Positions 210 to 23,828 of a stretch of DNA of 64,000 nt are shown in pieces (within the stretch, counting starts at the first letter, position 1; every line of letters starts with the position of its first letter). The DNA is from Patescibacteria group bacterium (lineage in GTDB: Bacteria > Patescibacteriota > JABMPQ01 > JAQVVF01). Location of the stretch: the NCBI GenBank assembly GCA_028699085.1, contig JAQVVF010000002.1, positions 68,557 to 132,556 of the forward strand, in the 5' to 3' direction. A program made the position numbers and the translations under genes. Below the pieces are notes generated by a model that saw nothing but the letters and a program-made list of their open reading frames with translations, was not told the origin of the DNA and did no database searches.

Positions 210-227
210 TACTTTATTACTTTATAA

Positions 228-536: not shown

Positions 537-583
537 AAAATTCTTATTTGTAAATATTATCTACAGAACAACATTATTTATTC

Positions 584-949: not shown

Positions 950-950
950 C

Positions 951-1214: not shown

Positions 1215-1233
1215 ATAATTTATAATACTGTAA

Positions 1234-1434: not shown

Positions 1435-1461
1435 ACTTTAAAACTTTATAACTTTAAAACT

Positions 1462-1869
1462 TTATAACTCCATTATAAACTTAGTCTTAATCGGTAATTT
1501 GTTAGCAGCCAAACGTAATGCCTCTCGTGCGACTTTCTCCGTTACTCCGTCCATTTCAAATAAAATCTTTCCTGGTGCAACAGAAACAACAAAATGATCA
1601 ACTGCACCCTTGCCTTTACCCATTGGAGTTTCAGCTCCTTTTGTAGTTACTGGCTTATCAGGAAATATTCTAATCCAAACTTTTCCACCACGTTGGATAA
1701 ATCTAGTCATAGCACGTCTAGAAGCTTCAATCTGTCTTGCTGTCAACCACTTACCTTCCATCGCTTTAATACCAAACATACCAAAACTTAATTGACTTCC
1801 ACGAACCTCAAGTCTTTTATTGCTTCCTTTTTGCCATTTTCTATGTTTTACTTTTTTCGGCATTAACAT
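1462..1869 (-). CDS. rplP: 50S ribosomal protein uL16
   Basis: [13 protein letters not shown]...[12 protein letters not shown]...[11 protein letters not shown] are uL16 motifs. Confidence 0.97.
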
Positions 1870-1898
1870 ATATTCGAAATTAGCTTAATTCTTAAAAA

Positions 1899-2540: not shown

Positions 2541-2583
2541 ATGTTTAAATAAAAATACTTAATAACTTTATAAAACCTTTAAA

Positions 2584-3087
2584 CTACATTGCTTTTCTTT
2601 GGAAGATCTTATTACCACCGCTTGTCTTTCTTCCAAAAAATCCCCGTTTCTGATCATTATTCTTGCCCCATTTCTTTTTTTTCTTTACTTTCTTTTCTTG
2701 TTTTTCTACAATTTTAGCTTCTTCTTTCTTAATTTTCTTAGCTTTTTTTCCTTTTACTTTTTCTTCCAATTCAATTTCAATATGGCTTGTTCTTCTTCTA
2801 ATAGTATAAGCTCTACCAAATGCTCGAGGACGAAATCTCTTCAATGTCGGTGCTTCATTAACAAAAACCTTAAAAACAAACAGATTATCTTTCTCCATAT
2901 TAAAGTTATGAACTGCGTTACTTGTAGCAGATAATAACAATTTCAATACTAAATCTGAAGATTTTTTATTCAAAAATCTCAATTGATTTTCTGCATCAAT
3001 CACATCTAAACCTCGAATTAGATCAACTACTAATTTCGCTTTTCTCGGAGCAATATGTAAATGTCTTAATGTTGCTTTAACTGACAT
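2584..3087 (-). CDS. rplV: 50S ribosomal protein uL22 with a Lys-rich C-terminal extension of about 55 aa
   Basis: LRHLHIAPRKAKLVVDLIRG...RAFGRAYTIRRRTSHIEI is the uL22 core. The protein is 167 aa, against about 110-120 aa in typical bacteria. Confidence 0.95.
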   Translation of the reverse strand: MSVKATLRHLHIAPRKAKLVVDLIRGLDVIDAENQLRFLNKKSSDLVLKLLLSATSNAVHNFNMEKDNLFVFKVFVNEAPTLKRFRPRAFGRAYTIRRRTSHIEIELEEKVKGKKAKKIKKEEAKIVEKQEKKVKKKKKWGKNNDQKRGFFGRKTSGGNKIFQRKAM

Positions 3088-3098
3088 ATATAGATTAA

Positions 3099-3446
3099 TT
3101 ATTCTTTAACTTCTTTTTTTTCACCTTCTTGCGCAGCTGCTAACTTTTGCGTCTCTGCTGCTTGAGCTGCTGCTGCTTCTTCCTTAGCAATTCTACCACC
3201 ATGAACTTCAAATCTTCTTGTCGGAGAAAACTCACCCAATCTATGTCCAACCATTTCTTCTGTTAAAAATACTGGAATGTGTTCTTTTCCATTATGTACT
3301 CCAATTGTAAAACCTACCATTTCTGGAAAAATAGTTGAGGATCTAGACCATGTTTTAATGATAGTCTTATCTCCTTGTCTCAATTTCTTTAATTTCTTTA
3401 AAAGTTTTGGATCACACCACAAACCTTTCTTTAAACTTCGTGACAT
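3099..3446 (-). CDS. rpsS: 30S ribosomal protein uS19 (Ala/Glu-rich C-terminal tail)
   Basis: MSRSLKKG...[31 protein letters not shown]...[11 protein letters not shown] matches uS19. Confidence 0.97.
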
Positions 3447-3473
3447 AATATATGTAACTTAGTATCTTATAAA

Positions 3474-4304
3474 TTATTTTCTTCTTCTAAGTATCAACTT
3501 ATCCGATAATCTATGAGGTTTTCTAGTCTTGACACCCATTGCTGGCTTGCCCCATCTTGTCTTTGGATGAATCATACCAATTGAGTTTCTTCCTTCACCA
3601 CCACCATGTGGGTGATCTTTTGGATTCATCGCTTTACCTCTTACTTCTGGTCTTCTGCCCATTTTTCTGCTTCTACCTGCGCTACCAATTATGATATTTC
3701 CATGATCAATATTGCTAATTCTACCAATCGTTGCACAAGAATCAATTAAGATATTTCTTACTTCACCAGAAGGAAATTTTAATTGAGCAAACTTGCCTTC
3801 AATTGCTAAAAGTTGAGCAGCTGCACCAGCACTTCTAACCATTTGTCCGCCTCTATTAGGCGCAAATTCAACTTCAGAAATAAAAGTACCCGTAGGAATA
3901 TATTTCAATGGATATCTATTTCCAACGGTTGCTTCAAGCTTTTTCAATGAACTCTTGACTTTATCACCAACCTTCAAATTTTCTTGAGCTAAAATATATG
4001 CCTTAGAACCATCAGTGTATTCAATCAATGCAACAAAAGCAGATCTATTTGGATCATATTCCAAGCTTTTTACTTCACCTTCAACATCATAATTTGATCT
4101 TCTAAAATCAATCATTCTATATTGTCTTTTGCTGCTTCCACCACGATGACGAATCGTAATTTTTCCTCGATGATTTCTACCACTATGTTTTTTTAATGCT
4201 ACAATCAAACCTTTTTCAGGTTCTTTTTTTGTTAACATTGAAAAATCAACGGTCGTAATATATCGTCTTGATGCTGTAACTGGTTTGTAGGTCTTAATTG
4301 GCAT
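3474..4304 (-). CDS. rplB: 50S ribosomal protein uL2
   Basis: GRNHRGKITIRHRGGSSKR...MNPKDHPHGGGEGR are uL2 motifs. Confidence 0.98.
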   Translation of the reverse strand: MPIKTYKPVTASRRYITTVDFSMLTKKEPEKGLIVALKKHSGRNHRGKITIRHRGGSSKRQYRMIDFRRSNYDVEGEVKSLEYDPNRSAFVALIEYTDGSKAYILAQENLKVGDKVKSSLKKLEATVGNRYPLKYIPTGTFISEVEFAPNRGGQMVRSAGAAAQLLAIEGKFAQLKFPSGEVRNILIDSCATIGRISNIDHGNIIIGSAGRSRKMGRRPEVRGKAMNPKDHPHGGGEGRNSIGMIHPKTRWGKPAMGVKTRKPHRLSDKLILRRRK

Positions 4305-4349
4305 TATCGAAAATTATTACTTTATAAATTTTGTAACTTTAAAACTCCG

Positions 4350-4754
4350 TTATACTCCTTCATAGATCTGGATGCTTTTTCCTGCTGGCAATGTTACAAT
4401 CGCTTTCTTTTTTGCGGAAGTCTGTCCAACTGTTTTTCCATATCTTCTTGATTTTCCAGATAAATTTATAACATTAACTTTTATTGGTTTAATTCCATAA
4501 ACTGCATAAATTGCTCTTGCAATCTCTTGCTTTGAAGCTGAGCTCTTTACTTGAAAAACATATTTATTAGAAATATTCAAATCTGCGCCTTTTTCTGAAA
4601 CTACCGGTTTTAACAAACATCTATGTGCTGCGCTATAAATATTTACAGCCTTTTTCGACTTTTCAGTATTTTTAGCAACTGAATCTTTCTTCTTAATAGA
4701 AGTTTCTTTTTTCTCATCTTTCTTTCCTTTTTTGAATACATCTAATAAAGCCAT
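4350..4754 (-). CDS. rplW: 50S ribosomal protein uL23 with a Lys-rich N-terminal extension of about 40 aa
   Basis: Core sequence LLKPVVSEKG...YVFQV...KPIKVNVIN...KKAIVTL; operon position between rplD and rplB. Confidence 0.93.
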   Translation of the reverse strand: MALLDVFKKGKKDEKKETSIKKKDSVAKNTEKSKKAVNIYSAAHRCLLKPVVSEKGADLNISNKYVFQVKSSASKQEIARAIYAVYGIKPIKVNVINLSGKSRRYGKTVGQTSAKKKAIVTLPAGKSIQIYEGV

Positions 4755-4770
4755 ATATTTAACTTGAAAA

Positions 4771-5382
4771 TTATTTAATCATTGCTAAAGATTTCTTATC
4801 TACAACCAATGTATCATATTTAACAACGTCATAAACGTTCAATAAATTTGATAATAATGGTTTTACACTTGAAACATTTCTGATAGACTTCATTGTCTTT
4901 TCATCATTTTCATTCAGCATTACCAAGGCGTTTTTTTCTACTTTAATATTCCTTAAAATCTTTACAAACTCTTTAGTTTTAATTGCTTCCATTTTTAATT
5001 CATCAAGAACAACTAATTTCTTTGAATTGTATTTATCAGAAAGCGCCATATGCAAAGCTTTTCTTTTTTCCTTCTTGTTTATTCTTTTTACATCATTCTT
5101 AGTCGCAACAGGACCAAATGTCTTACCTCCGCCCTTCCATAATGGAGAACGAATAGAACCAACACGAGCACGTCCTGTACCTTTTTGCTTCCATGGCTTA
5201 ATACCGCCACCTCTTACCTCAGCTCTATCTTTTGATTTGGAAGTAACTTCTTTTTTGCTCAATTGGGCAACAACTGCACGATGTACAACAGAATTTTTAA
5301 CTTCAACACCAAAAATATTTGGATCTAAATCCACTGTACCAACTTTCTTTCCTTCTTTGTTCAATATATCAACTTTTAACAT
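4771..5382 (-). CDS. rplD: 50S ribosomal protein uL4
   Basis: RGGGIKPWKQKGTGRARVGSIRSPLWKGGGKTFGP is a uL4 motif. Confidence 0.97.
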   Translation of the reverse strand: MLKVDILNKEGKKVGTVDLDPNIFGVEVKNSVVHRAVVAQLSKKEVTSKSKDRAEVRGGGIKPWKQKGTGRARVGSIRSPLWKGGGKTFGPVATKNDVKRINKKEKRKALHMALSDKYNSKKLVVLDELKMEAIKTKEFVKILRNIKVEKNALVMLNENDEKTMKSIRNVSSVKPLLSNLLNVYDVVKYDTLVVDKKSLAMIK

Positions 5383-5400
5383 ATGTAGCTAAAATAATCT

Positions 5401-6012
5401 TTAATTTCCACGAATTCTTAACCATGTTCCAACTTTGCCAGGCAAAGCTCCTTTTACGGCTAATACGTTTTCATTCACATTTATATCTAAAACTGATGAA
5501 TTCTTTGAAGTTACATTTTCTCCACCCATTCTTCCACCCATTCTTCTACCTTTCATAACGTGTTGAGGATGACCGGAGTTAATAGAACCAGGAGCTCTCC
5601 AATCGTGCTTATGACCATGCGAATGTGGTGCTCCATGAAAACCATGCCTCTTCATAACTCCAGCAAAGCCCTTACCTTTTGAAACGCCTGAAATAGACAA
5701 AGAATCACCAATTTTGAACTGTGAAATATCAATTTTATCACCAATTTTAAATGGAGTCAAGTCTTCAATTCTGAACTCTGCGAAACTACTTAAATTTTCT
5801 TTGATACCCGCCTTATTTAACGATCCTTTTACTCTACCATCGCCCTTTTTAACAATTTTATAGCCAACTTGAATAGCAGAATAGCCATCCTTTTTAGCAT
5901 CCAAAAGCCTAGTAACAAAACAATTACCAATTCTAATTAAGGTAACAGCTTCAAGTTTACCTTCTTTGTACATTCTACTCATTCCAATTTTTTCGCCAAA
6001 AATGAATTTCAT
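5401..6012 (-). CDS. rplC: 50S ribosomal protein uL3
   Basis: GEKIGMSRMY...GKGFAGVMKRHGFHG...HKHDWRAPGSIN are uL3 motifs. Confidence 0.97.
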   Translation of the reverse strand: MKFIFGEKIGMSRMYKEGKLEAVTLIRIGNCFVTRLLDAKKDGYSAIQVGYKIVKKGDGRVKGSLNKAGIKENLSSFAEFRIEDLTPFKIGDKIDISQFKIGDSLSISGVSKGKGFAGVMKRHGFHGAPHSHGHKHDWRAPGSINSGHPQHVMKGRRMGGRMGGENVTSKNSSVLDINVNENVLAVKGALPGKVGTWLRIRGN

Positions 6013-6243
6013 TGCTTAAAAATATATATTAACAATATTTATCTATTTCTAAAAAATAAATAAAGACCTAGATAAATTAGGTTAACAAACCTCAAGCGAA
6101 CTAGTCGCCATCTTATTTGCTAAACTTAGTCTATATCTAAAACTATATCTAAACTCGTAACAAATACCTTTAAAACATTCACAAAATCTTTCTCAAGCAT
6201 TCAAATACTCACTCGATTTATTCGAAAAAGCATTCGAGTAAGA

Positions 6244-6585
6244 TTACATCTTTATTTCAACATCAACACCTGCTGGTAAATTAAGGTTCGACAAAGCATC
6301 AATAGTCTTTGGAGTTGGCTTTACAATATCAATCAATCTCTTATGAATTCTAATCTCAAATTGTTCACGAGCGTCTTTATGAACAAATGTAGATTTCAAA
6401 ACAGTATCCCTATGCTTTTCAGTAGGAAGTGGAATCGGGCCGATAACTTCTGCACCGGATCTCTTTGCAGTTTCAATTATCTGCTCTGCTGATTGATCAA
6501 TAATCTTATGATCAAATGCCTTAATTTTAATTCTTATTCTTGGAGAAGATGTTTCTTCTTTCTTTTCTTGATTCTTTGTCATCAA
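6244..6585 (-). CDS. rpsJ: 30S ribosomal protein uS10 (short N-terminal extension)
   Basis: [40 protein letters not shown]...[12 protein letters not shown] matches uS10. Confidence 0.97.
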
Positions 6586-6596
6586 AAGGACTTATT

Positions 6597-6630
6597 TATT
6601 AAAACCCGACTCAAGTTTGATGAGTCGGGT
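6597..6630 (-). terminator. Strong hairpin plus U-tract after tuf, ending about 11 nt before the rpsJ start
   Basis: ACCCGACTCA (6604-6613) pairs perfectly with TGAGTCGGGT (6621-6630) around a 7-nt loop. On the minus strand the hairpin is followed by TTTTAATA. Confidence 0.75.
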
Positions 6631-6643
6631 CTTACTTAATCAT

Positions 6644-7837
6644 TTATTTAATAATCTTAGTTACAACACCAGCACCAACTGTTTTTCCGCCTTCGCGGAT
6701 AGCAAATTTCATCTTTTCTTCCATAGCAACTGGAGCAACTAATTTAACTTTCATTCCATTTACAGTATCGCCAGGCATAACCATTTCAGTTCCAGAAGGT
6801 AATGTTACTTCACCAGTAACATCAGTAGTTCTGACATAGAATTGTGGTTTATAGCCATTTGTAAATGCTGTATGGCGTCCGCCTTCTTCTTTCTTCAAAA
6901 TATAGGATTCTGCTTCAAATTCAGTATGAGGAGTAATTGAACCTGGTTTTGCTAATACTTGTCCTCTTTCAACATCTTCTTTCTTTGTACCACGTAACAA
7001 GATACCAGCGTTATCACCAGCTCTACCTTCATCCAAAGATTTATTGAACATTTCAATGCCAGTAGCAACAGTTTTTTGAGTAGGTTTTAAACCAACAATT
7101 TCAACAGCATCATTAATTTTAACCATGCCTCTTTCAATTCTACCAGTTACAACAGTTCCACGTCCTTCAATTGAGAATACATCTTCAATAGGCATTAATA
7201 ATGGTTTATCAACATCTCTTTTTGGATCAGGGATATATGAATCTAATTTTTCCAATAATTCTAGAATTGGTTTTCCTGCTTCACCTGATGGATCTTCCAA
7301 AGCTTTTAAAGCTGAACCTTTTACAATTGGAACTTCATCGCCAGGAAAATGATATTTCTTTAATAATTCTCTAACTTCTTCTTCAACCAAAGCAACCATT
7401 TCTGGGTCGTCAACTTGATCAACTTTGTTTAAAAATACAACAATTGATGGAACACCAACTTGATAAGCTAAAAGAATATGCTCTCTTGTTTGAGGCATTG
7501 GTCCATCAGCAGCAGATACAACCAAAATAGCACCATCCATTTGAGCTGCACCAGTAATCATATTCTTAATATAATCAGCGTGTCCTGGGCAATCAACGTG
7601 TGCATAGTGTCTTTTGTCTGTTTCATATTCACAGTGAGCTGTAGCAATAGTAATACCTCTCTCATGCTCTTCTGGAGCTGAGTCAATTTGATCAACTGAT
7701 CTTTCTTGTGCTTTACCTTTTCCAGTAGCATTGATAACTTTCAAAATAGCTGCTGTTAAAGTAGTTTTACCATGATCAACATGGCCAATTGTACCTACGT
7801 TTAAATGTGGTTTTGATCTGTCAAATTTTTCTGCCAT
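6644..7837 (-). CDS. tuf: Elongation factor Tu
   Basis: [18 protein letters not shown] and NKVD GTPase motifs; full-length 397 aa. Confidence 0.99.
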
Positions 7838-7863
7838 TTTTTTATAGTTTAATTATTATTTTA

Positions 7864-7892
7864 ATTATATACGCAAAAAATTATAATGTCAA
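7864..7892 (-). promoter_or_regulatory. Sigma-70-type promoter for tuf
   Basis: On the minus strand, TTGACA (7892-7887), a 17-nt spacer, then TATAAT (7869-7864). Confidence 0.6.
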
Positions 7893-8021
7893 ATCTAAAT
7901 CCTCTATTTTTACAACTTAAAAAAAATTATGCAAAAATAAAAAATAATATTTCAAAAATCTATTTTGCAAGAAGCATTATAACAACATTTATGATATAAA
8001 GCAAGACCTTTTTGTTGATAA

Positions 8022-8432
8022 CTATAAGTCAAATCTCTCATCTTCTTGCTCACAATCAACATCATAATAATAGCTCAAATCTTCCTCAACAAAATTATCT
8101 TTCTTACTATTTTGCTTAAGCGATTCATAATCAATACATTGCTTATCTTCTATCCAATTCTTTTTTGGCAAGTATTCTGAATAATCTTTTTCTGCTTCTT
8201 CGTTTTCTAATTTCCAACTAGCTATGTCAGAATTTATTTTATCAATCAACATTTTTCCTGAACAACACTTATCAGTTTTTTCTTTTTTGCTCAATATTTT
8301 TTCATATTCAGGAATAGACATTAAAACAAAAGAAGGTTTTCCATTTTCTACAATAATATATTTTCCGCCAGTAGATTTAAATAATCTCAAAATTGCCGGA
8401 AATTCTTTTGGATCTAAAACATTGATTGTCAT
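8022..8432 (-). CDS. Hypothetical protein with a Phd/YefM-antitoxin-like N-terminal segment and an acidic C-terminal half
   Basis: KYIIVENGKPSFVLMSIPEYEKIL resembles the Phd/YefM fold signature. The start is taken at the ATG for MTINVLD. No toxin partner lies adjacent. Confidence 0.5.
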   Translation of the reverse strand: MTINVLDPKEFPAILRLFKSTGGKYIIVENGKPSFVLMSIPEYEKILSKKEKTDKCCSGKMLIDKINSDIASWKLENEEAEKDYSEYLPKKNWIEDKQCIDYESLKQNSKKDNFVEEDLSYYYDVDCEQEDERFDL

Positions 8433-8524
8433 AATATTTTTATTTTTAATTATTAGATTATTCAATTATCCAATTACTAAATGTTTTCAATTAACATTTA
8501 GTAATTAAGAATTTAATAAACTTT

Positions 8525-10648
8525 TTATTTTCCTTCTTTTTTGCCAGTTCTTCCTTCAACAATCTGCAATTCTACATTCTTTGGAACTTGTTCATAATGA
8601 TCAAATTCCATTACGAAATTTCCACGTCCAGAAGTAATTGATCTGATTGTTGTTACATAGCCAAACATTGATGCAAGAGGAACCATGGCAGAAATAATTT
8701 TTAAGTTATCTCTATCTTCCATTTTTTGAATTTGTGCTCTTTTTGAATTTAAATCTCCAACAATATCACCCATGAACTCAGCTGGCATCATAGCTTCAAT
8801 TTTCATTATTGGTTCAAGTAAAATTGGTTTTGCTCTTCTCTCGCCTTCTTTCATCGCCATAGATGCAGCAATTTTGAAAGCAGCTTCAGAAGAATCAACA
8901 TCATGGAAAGATCCATCATATAATGTTGCTTTGATATCAATTACTGGATAACCAGCAATTACGCCTTCTGTTAATGCCTCTTTACAACCTTTTCCTACAG
9001 CAGGAATAAATTCTTGAGGAATGACACCACCTTTAATTTCATTAATAAATTCAAAACCTTTATTTCTTTCATTTGGTTCTAATCGGAGCCAAACATGTCC
9101 ATACTGACCATGACCACCTGATTGTCTAATATATTTTCCTTCAGCCTCAGCAGTACCCAAAATAGTTTCTTTATAAGCAACTTGTGGATTGCCAATATTA
9201 GCTTCGACTTTAAATTCTCTTTTCATTCTATCGACTAAAACATCCAAGTGTAATTCACCCATACCAGAAATAATTGTCTGCATTGTTTCTTCATCAGTAT
9301 GAACTTTAAAAGTAGGATCTTCTTCCGACAAAGCACGCAAAGCCATCGACATTTTTTCCTGATCAGCTTTTGTTTTTGGTTCAATGGCAATTGAAATAAC
9401 TGGTTCAGGAAAAGTAATTTTTTCCAACATAACAGGATGTTCCATATCACATAAAGTATCGCCAGTAGTAGTACCCTTTAAACCAACAATTGCTGCAATA
9501 TCACCAGCATAGACCTCATCCACTTCCTCTCTTTTATTTGCATGCATACGAATAATTCTACCGACTCTTTCTTTACTATCAGTTGAAGAATTCAAGACAT
9601 AAGATCCAGCTGTTAGAATACCTGAATAAACTCTAAAATAAACTAATTTTCCAACAAACGGATCAGTTGCTACTTTAAAAGCTAAAGCTGTAAATGGTTC
9701 AGTATCACTAACCTTTCTTTCAATTTTTTTTGTCTCGTCTTTTGGATCAAATGCAACTATTGCCGGCACATCTAAGGGGCTAGGCAAACAATCAATTACA
9801 TAATCTAATAACTTTTTGATAATTGCTTTTCTACCATCGCCACCCAAAACTGGAAAAAACTTTCCTGTCAAAGTTGCTTTTCTCAAAGCTGCTCTAATCT
9901 CTTCTTCAGTCAATTCTTGTCCTTCTAAATATTTCTCCATTAATTTATCATCAAATTCAACTATTTTTTCAATCATTTCAGCTCGATATTTTTCACACTT
10001 TTCTTTCATATCAGCAGGAATTTCTTTTGGCTCAGATAATTCCATACCCTCTTCTTTTGCATCGACATTAAAATAAGCCTTCATCATAATAAGATCTACA
10101 GCGCCTTTAATATCTTCGCCAGAACCAATTGGCAACATTACTGGATGAGCATTTTTTGATAATCTGCTGTGAATTGAATCTAAGCTTCTATAAAAATCAC
10201 CGCCAACTAAATTGATCTTATTCAAAAAACAAATTCTTGGAACATGATATTTGTCAGCTTGATGCCAAACAGTTTCCGATTGAGGCTCAACTCCCATTTT
10301 GCCATCAAAAACTACAACAGCTCCATCTAAAACACGCAAGGATCTTTCAACTTCTACTGTAAAATCAACGTGTCCAGGAGTATCAATAATATTAATACGA
10401 TGCTTGTCTTGTTCTTTTTTCCAAATTGGAGACCAAAAACAAGTTGTTGCAGCTGAAGTAATCGTAATTCCTCTTTCTTGTTCTTGTTCCATCCAATCCA
10501 TAGTAGCAGCGCCTTCATGAACTTCACCAATCTTATGTGAAATTCCAGTGAAAAACAAAATACGCTCAGTGATAGTTGTTTTACCAGCATCAATATGAGC
10601 TATAATTCCAATATTTCTTGTTTTTTCAAGTGAGTATTCTCTTGGCAT
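8525..10648 (-). CDS. fusA: Elongation factor G
   Basis: [17 protein letters not shown] and the GELHLDV region; 707 aa. Confidence 0.99.
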
Positions 10649-10721
10649 AATAAAAATTTAAAAATAAAAATAAATAATAAAAAACACCTACTTAAATATA
10701 TAAAATATCTAAAATCAACTG

Positions 10722-11474
10722 TTATCTTACATCAAAAGGCAGAGTTAAAGGCTCTGAAAATGGCACTGTCACTTCTTCCAATAAGTATCTTTCAGCAATT
10801 CCTACATTAGATTCACATGCTCCCCCATTGGGCGTAAATGAAGCAATGGAAACAGATTGCTTTTGATTTCCATTTTTAACAAAATACCTATCTCCAAACA
10901 CTCTAAGAACTCTAAAATCATCAAGTGGACCATCTGTAATAAAAGCACTTCCTGTGCAATTTGCATCACTGAAATAGACTGTCAAAGAAGAATTTAAGTC
11001 AGCATCAATGTATAAAAATTTCTTCAACGACGGAATATAAATATCAAAAGTCCTTACACCAACATTATTATAAAATCTTAAACTAGCATCTACCAGTATT
11101 CCTAAATCTTGATTATTTGCATCATAAACATGCAATTGCATTCCAGGAACACCCTGTTCACCACGATCTCCTTTTTCTCCCCTTTCGCCTTGGATGCCTT
11201 TAATACCTTGCTCACCTTTATCACCCTTTTCACCTTGAGGTCCCTGATCTCCTTTTACTCCTTGTGGTCCTGTTGGCCCAACGACTGATTTGCTTCCTGC
11301 TTTTAATTTTGCGACATCAACACTTAAAGTATTTACTTTTTTCTTCAAATTTTTTACTAATGTCCAAATTGAAACTTTATTAGCAGCCTGAACAATTGTT
11401 ACACCAGATAATAAAAATAATACAAGAGATACCGCAACAATCGCAACTAAAAACTTTTTGTTTGATTCTTGCAT
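10722..11474 (-). CDS. Membrane-anchored or secreted collagen-like (Gly-X-Y repeat) protein
   Basis: N-terminal hydrophobic segment, then 15 uninterrupted GXY triplets GPTGPQGVKGDQGPQGEKGDKGEQGIKGIQGERGEKGDRGEQGVPG (nt 11142-11279), then a globular C-terminal domain of about 140 aa. Confidence 0.85.
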   Translation of the reverse strand: MQESNKKFLVAIVAVSLVLFLLSGVTIVQAANKVSIWTLVKNLKKKVNTLSVDVAKLKAGSKSVVGPTGPQGVKGDQGPQGEKGDKGEQGIKGIQGERGEKGDRGEQGVPGMQLHVYDANNQDLGILVDASLRFYNNVGVRTFDIYIPSLKKFLYIDADLNSSLTVYFSDANCTGSAFITDGPLDDFRVLRVFGDRYFVKNGNQKQSVSIASFTPNGGACESNVGIAERYLLEEVTVPFSEPLTLPFDVR

Positions 11475-11504
11475 ATTTTTTTATAATTAAATTCTATCGT
11501 TCTT

Positions 11505-11532
11505 ATTATAATATAAATTATTTTTTTTGCAA
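11505..11532 (-). promoter_or_regulatory. Sigma-70-type promoter for the collagen-like gene
   Basis: On the minus strand, TTGCAA (11532-11527), a 16-nt A/T spacer, then TATAAT (11510-11505). Confidence 0.55.
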
Positions 11533-11576
11533 GCTTCTTTCTGCTTTATAACTTTAAAAACTTTACAACTTTACAA

Positions 11577-11602
11577 ACTAAAACCTCCGTTTACTACGGA
11601 GG
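11577..11602 (-). terminator. Rho-independent terminator after the 11630..12052 gene (hairpin could act on either strand)
   Basis: CCTCCGT (11584-11590) pairs with ACGGAGG (11596-11602). T-runs flank the hairpin on both strands. Confidence 0.7.
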
Positions 11603-11629
11603 TTTTTTATTTATAGACTTCCTAAAATC

Positions 11630-12052
11630 TTATTGCTTTGGTGCAGCTGGAGCAGATGGAGCAGCAGGATTTGATCCACCCTTCATTGTTCCAACATTTT
11701 TTTTCTTAACCATGAAATAATATAAGATTGATGCTAACCAAGACCATCCAACAAAGAATGTGATGATCAAAACAGCCAACCATACGCCTCTATTTGGAAA
11801 TTCTCTTTTGATACAATCAACTAACATCATAATCCAGAATACCAAGAAAAATAGACCGATCAGTCCACCAATAATTGCGATGATAATTCCAAAGATACCC
11901 ATTCCCATTCCTAATCCTGCCAATGCTTCTGCATCGCTTTCGTTCAATGTTGTAGTAGTTGTATAATTAAAATCTAAATCATTTTGCGCAAAGGCAAAAT
12001 TTGCTCCCAATGTAAGTACGCATACTGTAAGAAAAGCAAAAATTTTCTTCAT
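11630..12052 (-). CDS. Small membrane protein with signal peptide and a PLD-N-terminal-like transmembrane motif
   Basis: Signal peptide MKKIFAFLTVCVLTLGANFAFA; hydrophobic segments; the pattern WIMMLVDCIKREFPNRGVWLAVLII...ILYYF recalls the small cardiolipin-synthase-N type domain (from memory). Confidence 0.6.
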   Translation of the reverse strand: MKKIFAFLTVCVLTLGANFAFAQNDLDFNYTTTTTLNESDAEALAGLGMGMGIFGIIIAIIGGLIGLFFLVFWIMMLVDCIKREFPNRGVWLAVLIITFFVGWSWLASILYYFMVKKKNVGTMKGGSNPAAPSAPAAPKQ

Positions 12053-12175
12053 AATTTTTTTATTAATTAATTATTGTTTTGTTTTAAATAATTCTTATTG
12101 ACAGTCGACCTGCATCTGTCTACTTATCTGTAATATATCATCTTAAAAAAAACATGCAAGATTAATAATACACAG

Positions 12176-12205
12176 GACAAAAAAATATGCGAGCAAGTCG
12201 CATAT
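12176..12205 (-). terminator. Rho-independent terminator after rpsG
   Basis: ATATGCGA (12185-12192) pairs with TCGCATAT (12198-12205). On the minus strand the hairpin is followed by a run of 7 T. Confidence 0.75.
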
Positions 12206-12249
12206 TTGTGTTTTAGTAGTCTTAAAAAATTAGTAAAATTCGTAACTGA

Positions 12250-12720
12250 TTATCTTGCAAAGTGAGCAAAAGCTTTATTTGCTCTTGCCATTCTATGGGA
12301 ATCTTCTTTCTTTCTAACAGCTGATCCTTGATTCTTTGCCGCATCAATTATTTCTGTAGCTAATCTGATTGACATTGGCTGACCTTTTTTAGCTTTTGCA
12401 GCCTCAATAATCCATCTGAAGGCTAAAGTTTGTTTTCGATCGCCTCTTACTTCATAAGGGATCTGATAATTAGCGCCACCGATTCTTCTACCTTTTATTT
12501 CCAAATCTGGAGCTACATTTTTTAAAGCTAAATCAAAAATTTCAATTGGATCTTTTTTTAGTTTTGTAGAAATAAAACCTAATGTATTATAAATTGTTTT
12601 TCTAGCTGCGCCTTTCTTACCTCTTTCCATAATACTGTTGATAAATTTGGATACAACTAAATTACCATATTTTGGATCTGGTTTTAATTCTCTTTTATAT
12701 TGTCTTTTTCTTCTTGCCAT
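12250..12720 (-). CDS. rpsG: 30S ribosomal protein uS7
   Basis: PDPKYGN...VSKFINSIMERGKK...EVRGDRKQTLAFRWI matches uS7. Confidence 0.97.
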   Translation of the reverse strand: MARRKRQYKRELKPDPKYGNLVVSKFINSIMERGKKGAARKTIYNTLGFISTKLKKDPIEIFDLALKNVAPDLEIKGRRIGGANYQIPYEVRGDRKQTLAFRWIIEAAKAKKGQPMSIRLATEIIDAAKNQGSAVRKKEDSHRMARANKAFAHFAR

Positions 12721-12730
12721 AAATGATTAA

Positions 12731-12823
12731 ATTCTCAATTTACAATTCTCAATTTTCAAATTATCTAATCCAGCTTTGGAAATTGATTATTGAAAATTTA
12801 TTGTAAATTGATCATTGAAAATT
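12731..12823 (-). promoter_or_regulatory. Long imperfect inverted repeat in the rpsL-rpsG intercistronic region (candidate S7 translational operator)
   Basis: TCAATTTACAAT (12735-12746) is perfectly complementary to ATTGTAAATTGA (12800-12811). AATTTTCAA (12751-12759) is complementary to TTGAAAATT (12790-12798, repeated at 12815-12823). Confidence 0.45.
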
Positions 12824-12828
12824 AGTAA

Positions 12829-13272
12829 TTATTTTGTTTCAGCCTTCTTCTTTCCGGAAGCTGATTTCTTCGCGCCATATTTGCTTCTTTGTTGCATTCT
12901 ACCTTCAACACCAGCAGTATCTAAAATACCTCGAACAATATGATATTTTACACCAGGCAAATCCTTAACTCTTCCGCCACGAACAACAACGATTGAGTGC
13001 TCTTGCAAATTATGTCCTTCACCAGGAATATAAGCAGTTACTTCCATTCCGTTTGTTAATCTAACTCTAGCGATTTTTCTCAAAGCAGAGTTTGGTTTCT
13101 TTGGAGTAGTTGTTGTAACTTTTGTGCAAACACCTCTTTTGAAAGGATTGCCTTCTTCTAAAACAACATATCGTTTTTTAATCTTATTAAAATCCCTCTG
13201 CAATGCAGGTGCTTTAGATTTTCTTTTTCCAGATTTTCTTCTTCTCTTAACTAATTGATTTATTGTCGGCAT
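12829..13272 (-). CDS. rpsL: 30S ribosomal protein uS12
   Basis: [13 protein letters not shown]...[10 protein letters not shown]...GHNLQEHS...[15 protein letters not shown]. The start is taken at the MPTINQ Met rather than the longer ORF-track start. Confidence 0.97.
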
Positions 13273-13298
13273 ATATAATAATTTTTTATGATAAACAA

Positions 13299-13327
13299 AT
13301 ATTATCAAATAATAATTTGATTGTCAA
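13299..13327 (-). promoter_or_regulatory. Sigma-70-type promoter for rpsL
   Basis: On the minus strand, TTGACA (13327-13322), a 17-nt spacer, then TAATAT (13304-13299). Confidence 0.55.
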
Positions 13328-13348
13328 CAGTTATTAATAGTTTCTAGA

Positions 13349-13975
13349 CTATGCTAAAAACTTATCTATTATTCCAATCACCCAATAGAAATATCTAGAA
13401 AATAAACTGCCACCAATTAACAACAATCCGATCAAAACAAAAAAACCATACTTGTCTAAAAACATTTTGACATTTTCTGCAGAAGGAGGAAGCAAGGCAA
13501 ATAACAATTTTGATCCATCCAAAGGCGGAACTGGAATAACATTAAATGATAGTAACAAAGCATTGATCAATATGAATGTATACAAAAAATCAAACAAGGC
13601 ATTTCCTTCACCTAATCCTGTCAAAGGATAAACAAATTTCAATAACAAAACAAAAATAACAACCAAAATCAAATTAGAAAATGGTCCAGCCAAGGCAACA
13701 ATTGCCGGCCCGATCCTTTGATTCTTAAGATTATATGGATTAAATGGTACTGGTTTGCCCCAACCAAATCCAACAAAAAGCATCAACAATGTTCCCCATA
13801 TATCCATGTGCTTTAGAGGATTCAAAGTCAGCCTTCCTTGATTTTTTGCTGTTGGATCTCCTAATAATGTCCCTGCTAAAGCATGTGAAAATTCATGGAT
13901 CGTAATAGCAAAAATCATTGAAACTGCCCAAGCAAAAAACATTATTGGATTAGTTAAAAGCAATGAAATTATCAT
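13349..13975 (-). CDS. Site-2-protease-like (M50 family) membrane zinc metalloprotease
   Basis: HEFSH zinc motif in the first transmembrane region, multiple transmembrane segments, and NVIPVPPLDG downstream. Confidence 0.8.
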   Translation of the reverse strand: MIISLLLTNPIMFFAWAVSMIFAITIHEFSHALAGTLLGDPTAKNQGRLTLNPLKHMDIWGTLLMLFVGFGWGKPVPFNPYNLKNQRIGPAIVALAGPFSNLILVVIFVLLLKFVYPLTGLGEGNALFDFLYTFILINALLLSFNVIPVPPLDGSKLLFALLPPSAENVKMFLDKYGFFVLIGLLLIGGSLFSRYFYWVIGIIDKFLA

Positions 13976-14119
13976 ATTTTAGTAATTAATTAGAATTATC
14001 GGCAACTAGTAATTTAGTTATTTTGTTATTTATAATTTTGTTATTCGAAATTCGCTTGTCAAAACAATAATACTCTGTTATTATTACAAATACAAATTAA
14101 CTTTAATTATCTAAATCAT

Positions 14120-16359: not shown

Positions 16360-16626
16360 TTATTTTTTATCTTTCTTAAACAATCGAACTAAGAATACAG
16401 CACCAATTACCATCAACAAAGTTAAAAAACCAGCATAAATAAATTTCGCCCAAATATTATCTCTTTGCGGAAAAATATAATCAATAAATGACTTAATCGC
16501 ATCATTCCATGCTAAACCAACAATCAAACCGAAAGCAGCAGCAATATAACCGCTCACTTTCTTCAATGCTTCATCTCTTAATTTTATACTCTGCTCTTTA
16601 ATTTTATTTAAAGCCATTTTTACCAT
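16360..16626 (-). CDS. Small two-transmembrane-segment membrane protein, unknown function
   Basis: Amphipathic N-terminus plus two hydrophobic segments (GYIAAAFGLIVGLAW and FIYAGFLTLLMVIGAVFLV). Confidence 0.6.
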   Translation of the reverse strand: MVKMALNKIKEQSIKLRDEALKKVSGYIAAAFGLIVGLAWNDAIKSFIDYIFPQRDNIWAKFIYAGFLTLLMVIGAVFLVRLFKKDKK

Positions 16627-16711
16627 ATTTTAATATGCTAATTAATCAATCAAACAAACTAGCATATTTTCGAAATAAAATCAATCTTTAACAATTTAAC
16701 AATAAAAATTT

Positions 16712-16984
16712 TTATTTCTTTCCTTCCCAATAAGCATCTCCTTCTTCTTCCATTTTTTCTAATCTATCATAATAATCAGGAAATTCATTCAAATGTGCTA
16801 GAGCAATTTTTCCAGTCATTACAGGATCATCATTAGTCACATTAGTATGCATATCAACAGTTCCATGCTCTAATTCGACATCTAGACCTCTTCGAAATTG
16901 ATCGACGTCAAATTTTGTCCAATCAATTCCCAATTTTTCACCAATTTGCTTAGTTTCTTCTACTGTAAAATTTTGTTTTGACAT
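16712..16984 (-). CDS. Conserved hypothetical soluble protein (ELEHG...IALAHL.E.PDYY motif)
   Basis: A 90-aa ORF. From memory the motif set resembles a DUF family seen in phage and CPR genomes; not verified. Confidence 0.55.
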   Translation of the reverse strand: MSKQNFTVEETKQIGEKLGIDWTKFDVDQFRRGLDVELEHGTVDMHTNVTNDDPVMTGKIALAHLNEFPDYYDRLEKMEEEGDAYWEGKK

Positions 16985-17206: not shown

Positions 17207-18034
17207 ATGAAAAGATTTTTACTCGCCATCACTTCAACGCTTTTTTTACCAACTCTTGGTTTAGCTTTTTTGTTTCTCAATATCACCCACACCATGCTCT
17301 CGCCAAATATTTACAAAAAAGCTTTGACTGATGCCAATGCTTATGAACGTTTATCAAAAATTAATATCAATCAATTATTGTCTATTTTTTCCAAAAACAA
17401 AAATTTAGATATAATGCAAAAAGTCAAAATTAAAGTTTCCAAAGAAACATTGCAAAAAACAGTTGAGCCAACTATCGATTTCTTTTTTGTTGATGTTTTA
17501 AGAAATGGCAAAAAAACAATTATCATTGATTTATCTGATTTTCAAAAAGATTTTTTAGGCCAATATAATATTCCTATTTATCTTTTTCCAGAAGGAATTA
17601 TTCCGCAAAATTATTCTATTCCCATTCCTGGAACAATCTTGCTATTTCAACCATTTATTGCCATCTTGCCAATTCTAACTTATTTATTTTTTGCACTCTC
17701 TTTCTTTTATTTATTTTTAATAATTCTTTTCAAAAAAAATAATCGCGGAAAATTAAGATTGCCAGCCTATCTTATTTTTAGCTTAGGATTAACTTATCTA
17801 ATTATTTATTTTGTTGCTTGGTTTTTAGATCCATCCAAATATATCTCATTAGGATCGCAAAATTTTGCCCAGATTGCTCTAGATGTTTTAAATAATCTAA
17901 AAGTTGTTTTTATCAGACCTTATTTAATTGAAGGCATCATTTTAATAAGCATCAGTATAATTGCATTTATTATTTCTTTTTTTATTCCTCAAGAAAAAAA
18001 TAAATTAATTTTGCCCAACAAACCAATCAAATAG
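17207..18034 (+). CDS. Polytopic membrane protein, unknown function
   Basis: Several long hydrophobic segments; no recognisable catalytic motif. Confidence 0.6.
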   Translation: MKRFLLAITSTLFLPTLGLAFLFLNITHTMLSPNIYKKALTDANAYERLSKININQLLSIFSKNKNLDIMQKVKIKVSKETLQKTVEPTIDFFFVDVLRNGKKTIIIDLSDFQKDFLGQYNIPIYLFPEGIIPQNYSIPIPGTILLFQPFIAILPILTYLFFALSFFYLFLIILFKKNNRGKLRLPAYLIFSLGLTYLIIYFVAWFLDPSKYISLGSQNFAQIALDVLNNLKVVFIRPYLIEGIILISISIIAFIISFFIPQEKNKLILPNKPIK

Positions 18035-18042
18035 TTTGAAAC

Positions 18043-18075
18043 AAAAAACGGATCTTTCCAGAATCCGTTTTTTTA
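18043..18075. terminator. Bidirectional terminator between convergent genes
   Basis: ACGGAT (18048-18053) pairs with ATCCGT (18063-18068), flanked by an A-run on the 5' side and a T-run on the 3' side. Confidence 0.75.
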
Positions 18076-18096
18076 TTTAAAATAATCCTTTTAATA

Positions 18097-18879
18097 TTAC
18101 ATCGGCCTCAATGTTCCAGAAAAAATTTGCCAAGCCAAAGCTGATTTTGCAATCAAACTTAATAGAATATAAATTGATTCGCCATACAAATAATTTTTCC
18201 AAGGCCCAACTTTCCTATACTGCAAAAACATATTTAAAGCAAAGATATCAAAAAACACAAATATCGAAATCAAAATTCCATAAACAAATTTTGGAATTAC
18301 ATCACCAACGGAAGAAACTGCTCCAGCAAAATAAAGATAAATCACAATCCATGGCACGATTCCCATAATGCAACCAAAAACAAAAGCAGTCCAATTGATC
18401 TTCGTCGTCAATTGATTATATTTTTCCATCATTAGCCCAAATAAAATCATTGCCGAATTAACAGTAAACATTAATATCAAGCTTGATAAGTCATACATAC
18501 CGCATAGCATTGAAATAATCACAATCATTAATGAAGAAGAAATAGCATATTCATACCATCTGATATAATTGATGTGCTTTTTTAAATTTCTTTCATAGAA
18601 TTTAAATAATACTGTTGCAGTCAAAAAATGAGCTAATGCTGAAAGAAATAAGAACATCGCTACCATCGGACCAATTCTCAATTCTGCAACTTCCTTTATA
18701 ACTGTTGTTATTGCTTTTGTTGCCAAATCAAAACTCAAATAAGATGTCGTGATTGGCAATTTAAAATCATTGCTCAACCACAACATTAAGCAAGCTTGAA
18801 TCAAATGGAAAAAACCCATCACTGCATTATAAATCCGCAGCTTGCGATAAGTTTTTTCAGAACCTGTTTTTGTTGTCAT
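18097..18879 (-). CDS. Heliorhodopsin
   Basis: 260 aa with 7 transmembrane segments. Near-collinear match, from memory, to heliorhodopsin 48C12: GFFHLIQ (H25), SALAHFL (H84), RWYEYAISSSLMIV (E110), FGCIMGIVPWI, YILLSLIAKSALAWQIFSGTL (K245 as the Schiff-base lysine). Confidence 0.9.
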   Translation of the reverse strand: MTTKTGSEKTYRKLRIYNAVMGFFHLIQACLMLWLSNDFKLPITTSYLSFDLATKAITTVIKEVAELRIGPMVAMFLFLSALAHFLTATVLFKFYERNLKKHINYIRWYEYAISSSLMIVIISMLCGMYDLSSLILMFTVNSAMILFGLMMEKYNQLTTKINWTAFVFGCIMGIVPWIVIYLYFAGAVSSVGDVIPKFVYGILISIFVFFDIFALNMFLQYRKVGPWKNYLYGESIYILLSLIAKSALAWQIFSGTLRPM

Positions 18880-18928
18880 TTTTATTTTTAAATTATTTTA
18901 TAAAGAAGCAATTTATGTATCTCTATTC

Positions 18929-19096
18929 TTATTTGCAATTTTCTTTTGGCATTTCCATATTTGGGTTGCCATGCTTCACCCACTTACCTTTTTCACAAAC
19001 CCAAGAATCTTCTGGAGTAGAAAATCTTAATATTAAAACAATTCCAATTCCTAAAATAATTATTGCCCCAATAATAATTAAAAGTGTTTTTTTCAT
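18929..19096 (-). CDS. 55-aa single-pass membrane/secreted protein (W.C.KGKWVKHGNP...C motif)
   Basis: Hand translation gives MKKTLLIIIGAIIILGIGIVLILRFSTPEDSWVCEKGKWVKHGNPNMEMPKENCK. It starts 9 nt after the stop of the upstream gene. The plus-strand ORF 18870..19109 is its antisense shadow. Confidence 0.6.
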   Translation of the reverse strand: MKKTLLIIIGAIIILGIGIVLILRFSTPEDSWVCEKGKWVKHGNPNMEMPKENCK

Positions 19097-19105
19097 TAAT
19101 TATCA

Positions 19106-20038
19106 TTAAACTTTAATAAGCTTTTCTTGTTTACCATGCCTGTAAGACAAATATAAAAAGAAAACTAAAAGCGAAATTGTAGATACCGGAGCAATCCAGA
19201 ATGGGAATTCTTTGCCAAAAGATTCTAGAATCATAATTGCGCCAAGAACTCCAATCGAATACATTGCGCCATTTTTTAAATAAGCAAATTTTGCAATCAC
19301 ATCTATTCCTTTGATTGTAAGCTCTCTAACTACAAGCGCGCCCAAACCATTACCAATCAAAATCAAAGGCACATAAATAGTAAAAGCAAAAGCACCAATT
19401 ACACCATCAATAGAAAAAGAAGCATCTAATACTTCTAAATAAAATATCTTGCTCCATGCGCCAACACTGCTTGATTTCAGCAATGTTTTGCCTTTTTCTT
19501 CGGCATTTTTCTTCAAACCATCAGTAATAAAAAAGGCAGTTGCGCCGATTGAAGTCGATAATGCCATTGCCGGATTTCCAGCGCTAACAGACAATCCAAT
19601 CATTACTGTAAAAAATACTGAGGCAATTGCATAAAACCAAACTCCTTGATGAAATATAATATGTTCAACTAAAAAAGCATATTTCTTTTTTTCCAGAAAT
19701 AGCCAAGACAAAGCAACAAACAGCAAATAAATTCCACCACCAGATAATAATAATGGCTTTGATTCTTCCAACGCATCTTTTATAGCTGGATCATTTGAAA
19801 AAGCAAATGTTATAACTTCAAAAAATCCTAGATCAGTATTAGCTAGCCAAACAATCAAAAAAGGCAAGATACCTCTAACCAAAAATACTGCAATCAACAA
19901 TCCCCAAAACAAAAATATTTTCCGAAATCTTTTCGGTAAAGTTTGTAAAACATGAGCATTAACAATTGCATTATCAACACTTGAAATGATTTCAAAAACA
20001 CACAAACCTAAAACAATAACTAGATCTTGTAATAACAT
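19106..20038 (-). CDS. TerC/DUF475-like integral membrane protein
   Basis: N-terminal EIISSVDNAIVNA motif typical of the TerC/DUF475 superfamily; 8 or more hydrophobic segments. Confidence 0.65.
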   Translation of the reverse strand: MLLQDLVIVLGLCVFEIISSVDNAIVNAHVLQTLPKRFRKIFLFWGLLIAVFLVRGILPFLIVWLANTDLGFFEVITFAFSNDPAIKDALEESKPLLLSGGGIYLLFVALSWLFLEKKKYAFLVEHIIFHQGVWFYAIASVFFTVMIGLSVSAGNPAMALSTSIGATAFFITDGLKKNAEEKGKTLLKSSSVGAWSKIFYLEVLDASFSIDGVIGAFAFTIYVPLILIGNGLGALVVRELTIKGIDVIAKFAYLKNGAMYSIGVLGAIMILESFGKEFPFWIAPVSTISLLVFFLYLSYRHGKQEKLIKV

Positions 20039-20105
20039 TCTTAAGTATTAAAAAAGTAATATTAATATATTATGATATTTTTTTGATTTTTGCTAGTTAA
20101 AAATA

Positions 20106-20294
20106 CTATTTTGTCTCACCACGAAAACCATATCCAGGTTTAACCTTTTTCTTAGCATGATGTTTTTTTTCAGCTTTTATTGTCTTGCCGATATTCTGTA
20201 CATCTTTAAATTCACCTGTCCTTTCTCTCTTAGTGTACAATTTTTTACCACGTCTTTCCATTTTTGTCCTAAAGACACCTTTTCTTTTTGGCAT
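20106..20294 (-). CDS. Small highly basic hypothetical protein
   Basis: A 62-aa Lys/Arg-rich ORF with no recognisable motif. Confidence 0.4.
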   Translation of the reverse strand: MPKRKGVFRTKMERRGKKLYTKRERTGEFKDVQNIGKTIKAEKKHHAKKKVKPGYGFRGETK

Positions 20295-23579: not shown

Positions 23580-23717
23580 GATTTAAAACTTTCTTTATAT
23601 TTTTATATAAAAAGACACTCTGTCCAGACTGTCTTTTTAGAAAAACTTGATTATTTGATTATTATGATATAATAACAAAAATTAAATAATATGTCAAGTT
23701 TGCAACTTTTTATCACT

Positions 23718-23788
23718 TCGGGGACCCGGGAATCGAACCCGGTCTACATCCACCCCATGGACGCGTACTACCGGTATACTAGTCCCCG
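23718..23788 (-). tRNA. tRNA-Pro (anticodon GGG)
   Basis: Manual cloverleaf: acceptor CGGGGAC/GTCCCCG with discriminator A, anticodon stem CGTCC/GGATG, loop AUGGGGU, T-arm CCGGG-TTCGATT-CCCGG. No encoded CCA. A TTGATT-17-TATAAT promoter lies just upstream. Confidence 0.9.
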
Positions 23789-23828
23789 ACTTAAACATTA
23801 TTATATGCTTTAACAACCGCAAAATCAA

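Follow-up and report, generated by a model that had tools for sequence, protein, structure and literature searches.

A heliorhodopsin gene and a small cysteine-hairpin gene as an accessory block behind a DUF475 gene in a Patescibacteria genome

The 64,000-nucleotide stretch of DNA analyzed here (the window) comprises positions 68,557 to 132,556 of contig JAQVVF010000002.1 from a Patescibacteria group bacterium (GCA_028699085.1), and it carries on its minus strand three successive genes, encoding a DUF475/TerC-like membrane protein, a single-pass protein of 55 amino acids (the small gene) and a heliorhodopsin (HeR). What HeRs do is still understood only in part, and gene partners that are conserved offer one of the few approaches to the question. 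An earlier reading of the letters, made without database searches (the sequence-only reading), had taken the three genes for a membrane operon and raised the idea of a conserved set of partners. According to the analysis reported here, the small gene and the HeR gene together make up an accessory block of ~1 kb, placed between the stop codon of the DUF475 gene and the DUF475 terminator. The features of the locus are as follows.

19106..20038, minus strand: DUF475/TerC-superfamily integral membrane protein, 310 amino acids (PF04332, PF03741, NF010612; MDD3887444.1)
18929..19096, minus strand: single-pass cysteine-containing protein, 55 amino acids (open reading frame list; MDD3887443.1)
18097..18879, minus strand: HeR, 260 amino acids (PF18761, NF038020, residue alignment; MDD3887442.1)
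18039..18073, minus strand: intrinsic terminator, hairpin and U-tract (RNA fold)
18090..19084, minus strand: block of small open reading frame (ORF) and HeR gene, ~993 nt (blastn against the sister genome L088)
20072..20100, minus strand: candidate sigma-70-like promoter, TTAACT-17-TATCAT (consensus match only)

The heliorhodopsin and its host

The 260-amino-acid product was matched by Pfam family PF18761 with 337.7 bits (cutoff 26.7) over residues 14-257 and profile positions 1-242 of 242, and by the NCBIfam equivalog NF038020 'HeR' with 348 bits (cutoff 100) over profile positions 1-244 of 244. The proposal that the protein is a heliorhodopsin along its whole length was thus borne out by two full-length family matches. 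The closest solved relatives were TaHeR (6is6, E-value 8e-87) and 48C12 (6su3, E-value 1.5e-68), and the window protein could be aligned end to end with both solved chains, at pairwise identities of 56% and 49%, respectively. In the pairwise alignment with 48C12, residue H23 corresponds to H25 of the window protein, S76 to S80, H80 to H84, E107 to E110 (within RWYEY), S237 to S241 and K241 to K245 (motif SLIAKSALAWQIF), and the equivalences that had been proposed for the two histidines, the glutamate and the lysine are therefore correct. The Schiff-base lysine motif SxxxK of transmembrane helix 7 (TM7) reads S241-L-I-A-K245 (SLIAK), and K245, E110, H25 and H84 were invariant in an alignment of 16 HeR sequences. 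The N-terminal 16 residues contain five Lys or Arg, which is in keeping with a cytoplasmic N-terminus, as in the inverted seven-helix topology of HeRs.

Among relatives, where synonymous divergence (dS) reached values of up to 1.25, the ratio of nonsynonymous to synonymous divergence (dN/dS) of the HeR gene was ~0.05, and the gene is under strong purifying selection. From its sequence, it is predicted to encode a bona fide heliorhodopsin in a genome of the Patescibacteria, or candidate phyla radiation (CPR). The find is less new than the sequence-only reading suggests: the protein MDD3887442.1, identical residue for residue, is already named 'heliorhodopsin HeR' at NCBI, and CPR HeRs have already been published.

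The nearest named relatives of the window HeR come from Patescibacteria, Berkelbacteria, Dojkabacteria and Nomurabacteria. The window has a GC content of 31%, and its genes include a ribosomal cluster of the str/S10 type, FtsZ, FtsA, HisRS, topoisomerase I, RelA/SpoT and ParAB, while the CPR-typical DUF5654 and DUF5661 genes flank the locus. All three proteins of the locus are identical to NCBI entries labeled 'Patescibacteria group bacterium' (MDD3887442.1; MDD3887443.1, a hypothetical protein with locus tag PHN19_01580; and MDD3887444.1), all on a contig of 200,518 bp, and these labels, together with the two CPR-typical genes, uphold the earlier description of the host as a bacterium with a reduced genome.

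The same reading had noted that no gene for retinal biosynthesis is visible, and this was also the outcome here: no blh or crt family (beta-carotene dioxygenase, carotenoid synthesis) was detected among the scanned window ORFs of at least 100 amino acids, a scan that left out about nine short ORFs of the ribosomal-protein cluster (1-14000) and took in several other ORFs of that cluster together with the neighbors at 16360-16984. The genomes of rhodopsin-bearing CPR bacteria are without blh, and TaHeR, whose host is without a retinal pathway, takes up external retinal fast (PMC9296517). A survey by Chiriac et al. (2022) recorded CPR HeRs in Saccharimonadia, Dojkabacteria, ABY1 (three cases) and other classes, with SLIAK among their commonest TM7 motifs, and found a rhodopsin of any kind in only 86 of 1326 CPR genomes (PMC9166423). 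Given the dN/dS of ~0.05, the window protein can be argued to be useful to the cell although its chromophore must come from outside, and the window presents a clean case of a retinal-less bacterium with a reduced genome that retains HeR under strong purifying selection.

An accessory block behind a DUF475 gene

The ORF coordinates agree with the three co-oriented genes and the two gaps of the sequence-only reading, namely 9 nt between DUF475 and the small ORF (19097-19105) and 49 nt between the small ORF and HeR (18880-18928). Directly past the HeR stop codon, a fold computation yielded a hairpin (AAAAAAACGGAUUCUGGAAAGAUCCGUUUUUU) of -14.1 kcal/mol with a z-score of -2.8, which a simple terminator scanner had overlooked; nothing credible as a terminator was returned by that scanner between the three genes, and the terminator accordingly stands only after HeR, as had been claimed. 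Because the hairpin sits between the convergent HeR and 275-amino-acid genes, it is probably a bidirectional terminator. The 49-nt spacer was found to contain a weak hairpin only (-6.1 kcal/mol, without a U-tract), and the consensus RNA structure of the small ORF-HeR spacer across relatives had 0 pairs, so that the weak hairpin of the window is not conserved. In its co-orientation, its short gaps, the lack of an internal terminator and the single terminal terminator, the arrangement resembles an operon, with DUF475, a conserved backbone gene, at the head of the putative transcription unit. The promoter candidate precedes the DUF475 start by 33 nt, in a region where consensus matches occur at chance level. 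With the block of small gene and HeR lying between the DUF475 stop codon and the DUF475 terminator, a single transcript that starts upstream of DUF475 probably covers all three genes.

The extent of the block was given by comparison with a sister genome, L088 (GCA_964574655.1; also L089; further loci and contigs are likewise referred to by L numbers), the DUF475 protein of which is 88% identical to that of the window. The two share the order of genes on both flanks: on one side an ATP-grasp gene, a DEAD helicase gene, a 62-amino-acid gene and DUF475, and on the other side the convergent 275-amino-acid gene, DUF5661, DUF5654, FG-GAP, L28, M50, S12, S7 and EF-G. In L088, 59 nt lead from DUF475 to the convergent gene, and the small ORF and HeR are both missing. 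A single hairpin follows HeR in the window, in L090 and in L092, and the same hairpin directly follows DUF475 in L088. In a blastn comparison of the window with L088, the alignment ended at 19084 and restarted at 18090, leaving ~993 nt extra in the window. On L088 the two aligned pieces share 24 nt, which may be chance in AT-rich DNA, and a repeat search at the borders of the cassette bore out no direct repeat there. It is because L088 has the same flanks and the same terminator without the small ORF and HeR that the two genes are classed as an accessory block, and within the window lineage they come and go together.

The order DUF475-small gene-HeR was found in four close lineages only, represented by the window (L001 being an identical Logan contig), L090/L091, L092 and L084, and the HeRs of these relatives are 91-99% identical to the window HeR. 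Phylogenetic placement of the protein, which the sequence-only reading had suggested, was carried out by neighbor joining, and the four lineages formed a terminal clade within a CPR-only HeR subclade. The neighbors of HeRs at 68-76% identity are different. L002 lies beside unknown genes, and in L085 (4663-5953) and L086 (326-1661) HeR stands beside genes for an extracytoplasmic function (ECF) sigma factor and an unknown protein of 250 amino acids. A CNNM/CorC transporter gene is located 18 nt upstream of HeR in L087 (1549-2802), and in L176 (5790-7360) HeR lies beside two unknown genes that are followed by a ZIP transporter gene. The nearest sister HeR (L174 904-2374; 70% identical) is arranged as TspO/MBR - 39 nt - HeR - 46 nt - DUF378.

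A wider sample of HeR genes consisted of 80 loci from species-representative genomes together with contigs of close HeR homologs. A tblastn comparison with 82 loci outside the window lineage gave no DUF475 within 6 kb of the HeR gene, and the small ORF, the 62-amino-acid gene and the 275-amino-acid gene were absent from the same 82 loci. Three occurrences were the most that any Pfam family reached among the 149 immediate neighbors of 84 HeRs, and the recurrent families did not include TerC/DUF475. The idea that the TerC-like gene might recur beside HeR genes in other genomes thus failed, as the adjacency is limited to the four close lineages and is absent from the 82 other loci and from the syntenic L088.

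Two further candidates for a recurrent theme were rejected. DUF378 was present, downstream of HeR, only in L084 (5220-6378) and L174, being absent from the window and the other loci fetched, and a metal-transporter theme near HeRs (CNNM, ZIP, CDF, P-type ATPase, DUF475) would be cherry-picking, with no such family occurring more than twice among the 149 neighbors. Proteins that combine MerR and B12-binding domains, the architecture of light-responsive regulators of the CarH/LitR type, were recorded three times among these neighbors, and GAF, DegV, FMN_red and MFS were also recorded three times each.

The DUF475 protein itself scored 155.2 bits against PF04332 (profile positions 1-288 of 293), 75.1 bits against the TerC family PF03741 and 392.6 bits against NCBIfam NF010612 (cutoff 386). 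Characterized TerC proteins are concerned with metal (Mn2+) export or are controlled by the yybP-ykoY riboswitch. A scan of the window with Rfam at gathering score returned one tRNA only, and at that threshold there is therefore no yybP-ykoY riboswitch upstream of DUF475. Across thousands of Patescibacteria proteins DUF475 is ~70% identical, and the gene appears to be a near-universal housekeeping gene of CPR bacteria.

A comparison of the window with L090 revealed 92-99% nucleotide identity over ~5.5 kb, except in the body of DUF475 (window ~19061-19960 against L090 8001-8933), where identity was 69-83%. Between the two, DUF475 reached a dS of 1.10, as against 0.20 in HeR and 0.22 in the small ORF, and the DUF475 allele was therefore replaced independently of HeR. 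It looks as though the DUF475 allele alone was exchanged by homologous recombination, with the adjoining cassette kept. The dN/dS of DUF475 among relatives was 0.06-0.11.

The predicted role of DUF475 is thus not that of a family-level partner of HeR, because the adjacency occurs in one shallow clade and is absent from L088 and from other HeR loci, and because the gene is near-universal in CPR and has recombined independently; the adjacency would reflect the placement of the block and not a three-way partnership. A tempting but false lead for HeR function, the TerC/DUF475 lead, is thereby removed. In the literature, HeR operons were sorted into ten groups in a 2024 study, and one of these, 'TerC family protein', consists of four Cryobacterium species with the arrangement TerC - 66 nt - helR, or 4 of 448 HeRs (PMC11109279, Supplementary Data 9). 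Bulzu et al. listed glutaredoxin, GSHPx, histidine kinases and other families near HeRs, a list without TerC (PMC8612252). A literature search returned nothing that joins 'heliorhodopsin' with 'DUF475', and no functional paper on DUF475.

The genes that border the three-gene unit on either side were without a Pfam or NCBIfam match. Upstream of DUF475 lies the gene for a very basic protein of 62 amino acids (20106-20294, minus strand), which is also present in L088/L089, a 51-amino-acid gene taking its position in L090. Downstream of HeR, the convergent gene encodes a multi-pass membrane protein of 275 amino acids (17207-18034, plus strand); it is also present in L084, L088 and L092, and a 246-amino-acid gene is found in its place in L090.

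The 55-amino-acid protein and other features of the window

The 55-amino-acid protein consists of an N-terminal transmembrane helix followed by an extracytoplasmic, cysteine-stapled beta-hairpin, and an AlphaFold2 model placed the helix at residues 2-26 and the hairpin at residues 31-42, with a pLDDT of 91. Its family motif is RF..PEDxW[IV]CxxGxWVKHGNPxxxMPxxxC, of which the window version reads RF..PEDxWVCxxGxWVKHGNPxxxMPxxxCK, and the family residues E29, D30, W32, W39, H42, G43 and P45 and both cysteines are invariant in the small ORF. An in-frame homolog of the small ORF is present in the gap between DUF475 and HeR in all four HeR-bearing lineages, having been passed over by gene callers in L084, L090 and L092. 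Its dN/dS of 0.12-0.35 over 51 codons indicates that the small ORF is a coding sequence under purifying selection.

At least 109 members of the small family were found, and clustering at 50% gave 1006 representatives. The 55-amino-acid protein is the smallest version of an N-terminal module, widespread in CPR bacteria, that is made up of a membrane anchor and a cysteine hairpin. This module is apparently undescribed and is without a Pfam family; larger CPR proteins that carry it include L113 1598-2260, P0360, P0380, P0418 and P0455.

The neighborhoods of the small family were sampled at 80 metagenomic loci, drawn from a narrower alignment with a conserved stretch. DUF475 was present at none of the 80, and HeR was immediately adjacent at two of them, L142 and L113. 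In L142, the small gene is followed after a 34-nt gap by a co-oriented HeR gene, and in L113 a 220-amino-acid protein, in which the small module is fused to Gmad2, is encoded divergently from HeR. The two HeRs belong to two further CPR subclades, and their sister HeRs are without the small gene. With a background rate that is our own estimate (~98 HeRs in 1326 CPR genomes of ~1 Mb each, numbers from PMC9166423), two HeRs were observed in the 0.417 Mb of small-family loci against ~0.03 expected, a comparison of two loci with an assumed background. When the neighbors of the 80 loci were clustered, no dominant partner emerged, and the largest cluster covered six loci. From the side of the rhodopsins, a small-family hidden Markov model applied to six-frame ORFs gave matches within the window lineage and none at 84 HeR loci outside it, ~20 of them from CPR.

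The association of the small family with HeR beyond the window lineage is accordingly suggestive but weak. Recurrence of the 55-amino-acid gene beside HeR genes was checked from both sides, and the two adjoined each other at two of the 80 family loci and at none of the 84 HeR loci outside the lineage. As for the conserved partner set of the sequence-only reading, DUF475 drops out of it, and the 55-amino-acid gene, which is gained and lost with HeR in the lineage, may belong to it. The 55-amino-acid protein is a more plausible candidate for a functional link than DUF475, and it offers a narrower, testable lead, being gained or lost with HeR and adjoining HeR in two other CPR lineages.

Other features of the window were recorded in passing. 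Between rpsG (S7) and fusA (EF-G) of the str operon lie the genes for a 250-amino-acid protein with collagen triple-helix repeats (PF01391; 10722-11474, minus strand) and for a 140-amino-acid protein without a family (11630-12052, minus strand), and a protein of similar size is called between rpsG and fusA in L088 and L090 too. ARAGORN placed a tRNA-Pro(GGG) at 23717-23789 (minus strand), and the Rfam scan at gathering score gave only a tRNA-Leu (55571-55651). At 39982-40076, gene orientation switches from the minus strand on the left to the plus strand on the right and GC skew passes from ~-0.3 to ~0, and ParA and ParB are encoded at 53770-55492; the switch region could be near a replication origin.

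Interpretation and comparison with known systems

The explanation that we favor as a whole, and regard as likely, is that of an HeR photoreceptor encoded in an accessory block of small gene and HeR behind a housekeeping DUF475 gene. In the proposed mechanism, the apoprotein would take up all-trans-retinal made by other organisms, a step suggested because no blh or crt gene is present in the window and CPR genomes are generally without them. Retinal would then form a protonated Schiff base with K245, and E110 would serve as the counterion. HeRs have been reported to bind glutamine synthetase, photolyase and an ABC transporter, OmrDE (PMC11109279), and by analogy the window HeR may be a slow-cycling photoreceptor that touches another protein directly and thereby changes how active it is.

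Several observations weigh against this explanation. The indel that separates the window from L088 could be a gain in the window lineages or a loss in L088, in either direction. Co-transcription is predicted from the gaps and the terminator position, and L084 has more than 100 nt between DUF475 and the small ORF, which could house a separate promoter. The order of DUF475 and HeR has outlived substantial divergence (HeR dS of up to 1.25), and four Cryobacterium species have been published in which helR directly follows a TerC-family gene; because of this persistence and this precedent, there may be some facultative coupling between DUF475 and HeR. For the small ORF, a clean ATG is present in the window only (19080-19096): L090/L091 have a 1-nt deletion just after ATGAAAAAAA (L090 8934-8960), giving MKKIF*, and L092 (2006-2090) and L084 (5002-5025) are without an in-frame ATG, the frame downstream of this unstable start being conserved nonetheless. 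Finally, in most representatives of the small family the module forms the N-terminus of a larger protein of the Gmad2, Germane or BNR/GH43-like kind, and the adjacency of the family to HeR may be without specific meaning.

Among the alternatives, the one that survives best would make the 55-amino-acid protein a dedicated accessory subunit of HeR, for example one that binds at the extracellular face or relays a signal, within a mobile two-gene light-sensing cassette of CPR bacteria. The joint presence and absence of the two genes in the window lineage speaks for such a subunit, as do purifying selection on the small ORF, the adjacency in L142 and L113 in two other CPR subclades and the excess of two HeRs over ~0.03 expected in 0.417 Mb. 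However, none of the 84 HeR loci outside the lineage, ~20 of them CPR, carries the small family, its neighborhoods are otherwise heterogeneous, most of the 1006 representatives are modules of larger Gmad2, Germane and BNR proteins, the start codon is lost or noncanonical in three of the four lineages, and the enrichment depends on an assumed background and two loci; we judge this alternative possible, though improbable on balance. The more specific proposal that a minimal membrane-anchored cysteine-hairpin protein and HeR make up a mobile two-gene cassette in several independent CPR lineages, with the small protein as a partner of HeR on the extracellular side, is tentative and on the doubtful side. 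In such a cassette, the small protein might, for instance, relay the light signal or help HeR to obtain retinal from host cells. If true, organisms unable to make retinal would have yielded a first membrane partner of HeR that is defined genetically.

A functional three-protein membrane module, in which HeR would, for example, modulate a TerC-type cation exporter by light, appears unlikely. The co-orientation, the gaps of 9 and 49 nt and the single terminator are compatible with such a module, and its order was kept in four lineages at a synonymous divergence near saturation. Further points in its favor are the arrangement 'TerC family protein - 66 nt - helR' in four Cryobacterium species (PMC11109279), the precedent of OmrDE for an HeR that regulates a membrane transporter, and the other cation transporters (CNNM, ZIP, CDF) near some HeRs. 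These are set against the syntenic sister L088, which has DUF475 without HeR, and against the absence of DUF475 from all 82 other HeR loci and all 80 small-family loci. In addition, DUF475 is near-universal in CPR whereas any rhodopsin is found in 86 of 1326 genomes (PMC9166423), the DUF475 allele recombined while the small gene and HeR stayed nearly identical, and the Cryobacterium group is a single genus with 4 of 448 HeRs.

It is also quite unlikely, in our view, that the small ORF represents a remnant, in decay or not expressed, and that HeR alone matters in the block. Such a reading would account for an ATG in the window only, for the frameshift after the ATG in L090 and the missing in-frame ATG in L092 and L084, and for the ORF being skipped by gene callers in L084, L090 and L092. 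Against it stand an open frame of at least 51 codons in four lineages of a genome with 31% GC, the dN/dS of 0.12-0.35, invariant residues that match a large family and a confident AlphaFold2 model.

It is very improbable, lastly, that the window HeR energizes a fermentative CPR cell by light-driven or light-gated ion transport; it keeps the residue pattern of 48C12 and TaHeR (E110, H25, H84, S80, S241) and is probably no ion pump. To our knowledge, 48C12 and TaHeR show no ion transport. In favor of transport, extra proton-motive force would benefit a minimal cell, and some giant-virus HeRs transport protons, as cited in PMC11109279.

Of known systems, the Cryobacterium TerC - helR group resembles the window in its TerC-superfamily gene directly upstream of HeR, co-oriented and at a short gap. 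It differs in being from Actinobacteria and of the TerC family, whereas the window has a member of the DUF475 branch, a 55-amino-acid gene in between and a CPR host; both are known from genes alone. The CPR HeRs published so far share the SLIAK motif with the window HeR, and the study describing them makes no mention of the DUF475-small gene-HeR arrangement or of a small cysteine-hairpin family (PMC9166423). The regulatory HeRs that act on glutamine synthetase, photolyase and OmrDE provide a model for the light-dependent modulation of an operon-encoded partner, and none of these three partners is encoded at the window locus.

The founder of the family, 48C12 (PDB 6su3, 6su4), comes from an actinobacterial fosmid and not from a CPR bacterium. 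Its residues H23, H80, E107, K241, S76 and S237 are all kept in the window HeR, while its Q213 is replaced by M217 and its W163 by V167. TaHeR (Thermoplasmatales archaeon SG8-52-1; PDB 6is6, 7u55) has an archaeal host, in contrast to the CPR host of the window HeR, and an unlike genomic context, and the region of the TM5-TM6 loop is five residues longer in the window protein (AGAVSSVGDV) than in TaHeR (SAESV). The two proteins are nevertheless 56% identical over 248 aligned residues and have in common the Schiff-base lysine, the glutamate counterion, both histidines and the methionine at position 217 of the window HeR, where 48C12 has Q213.

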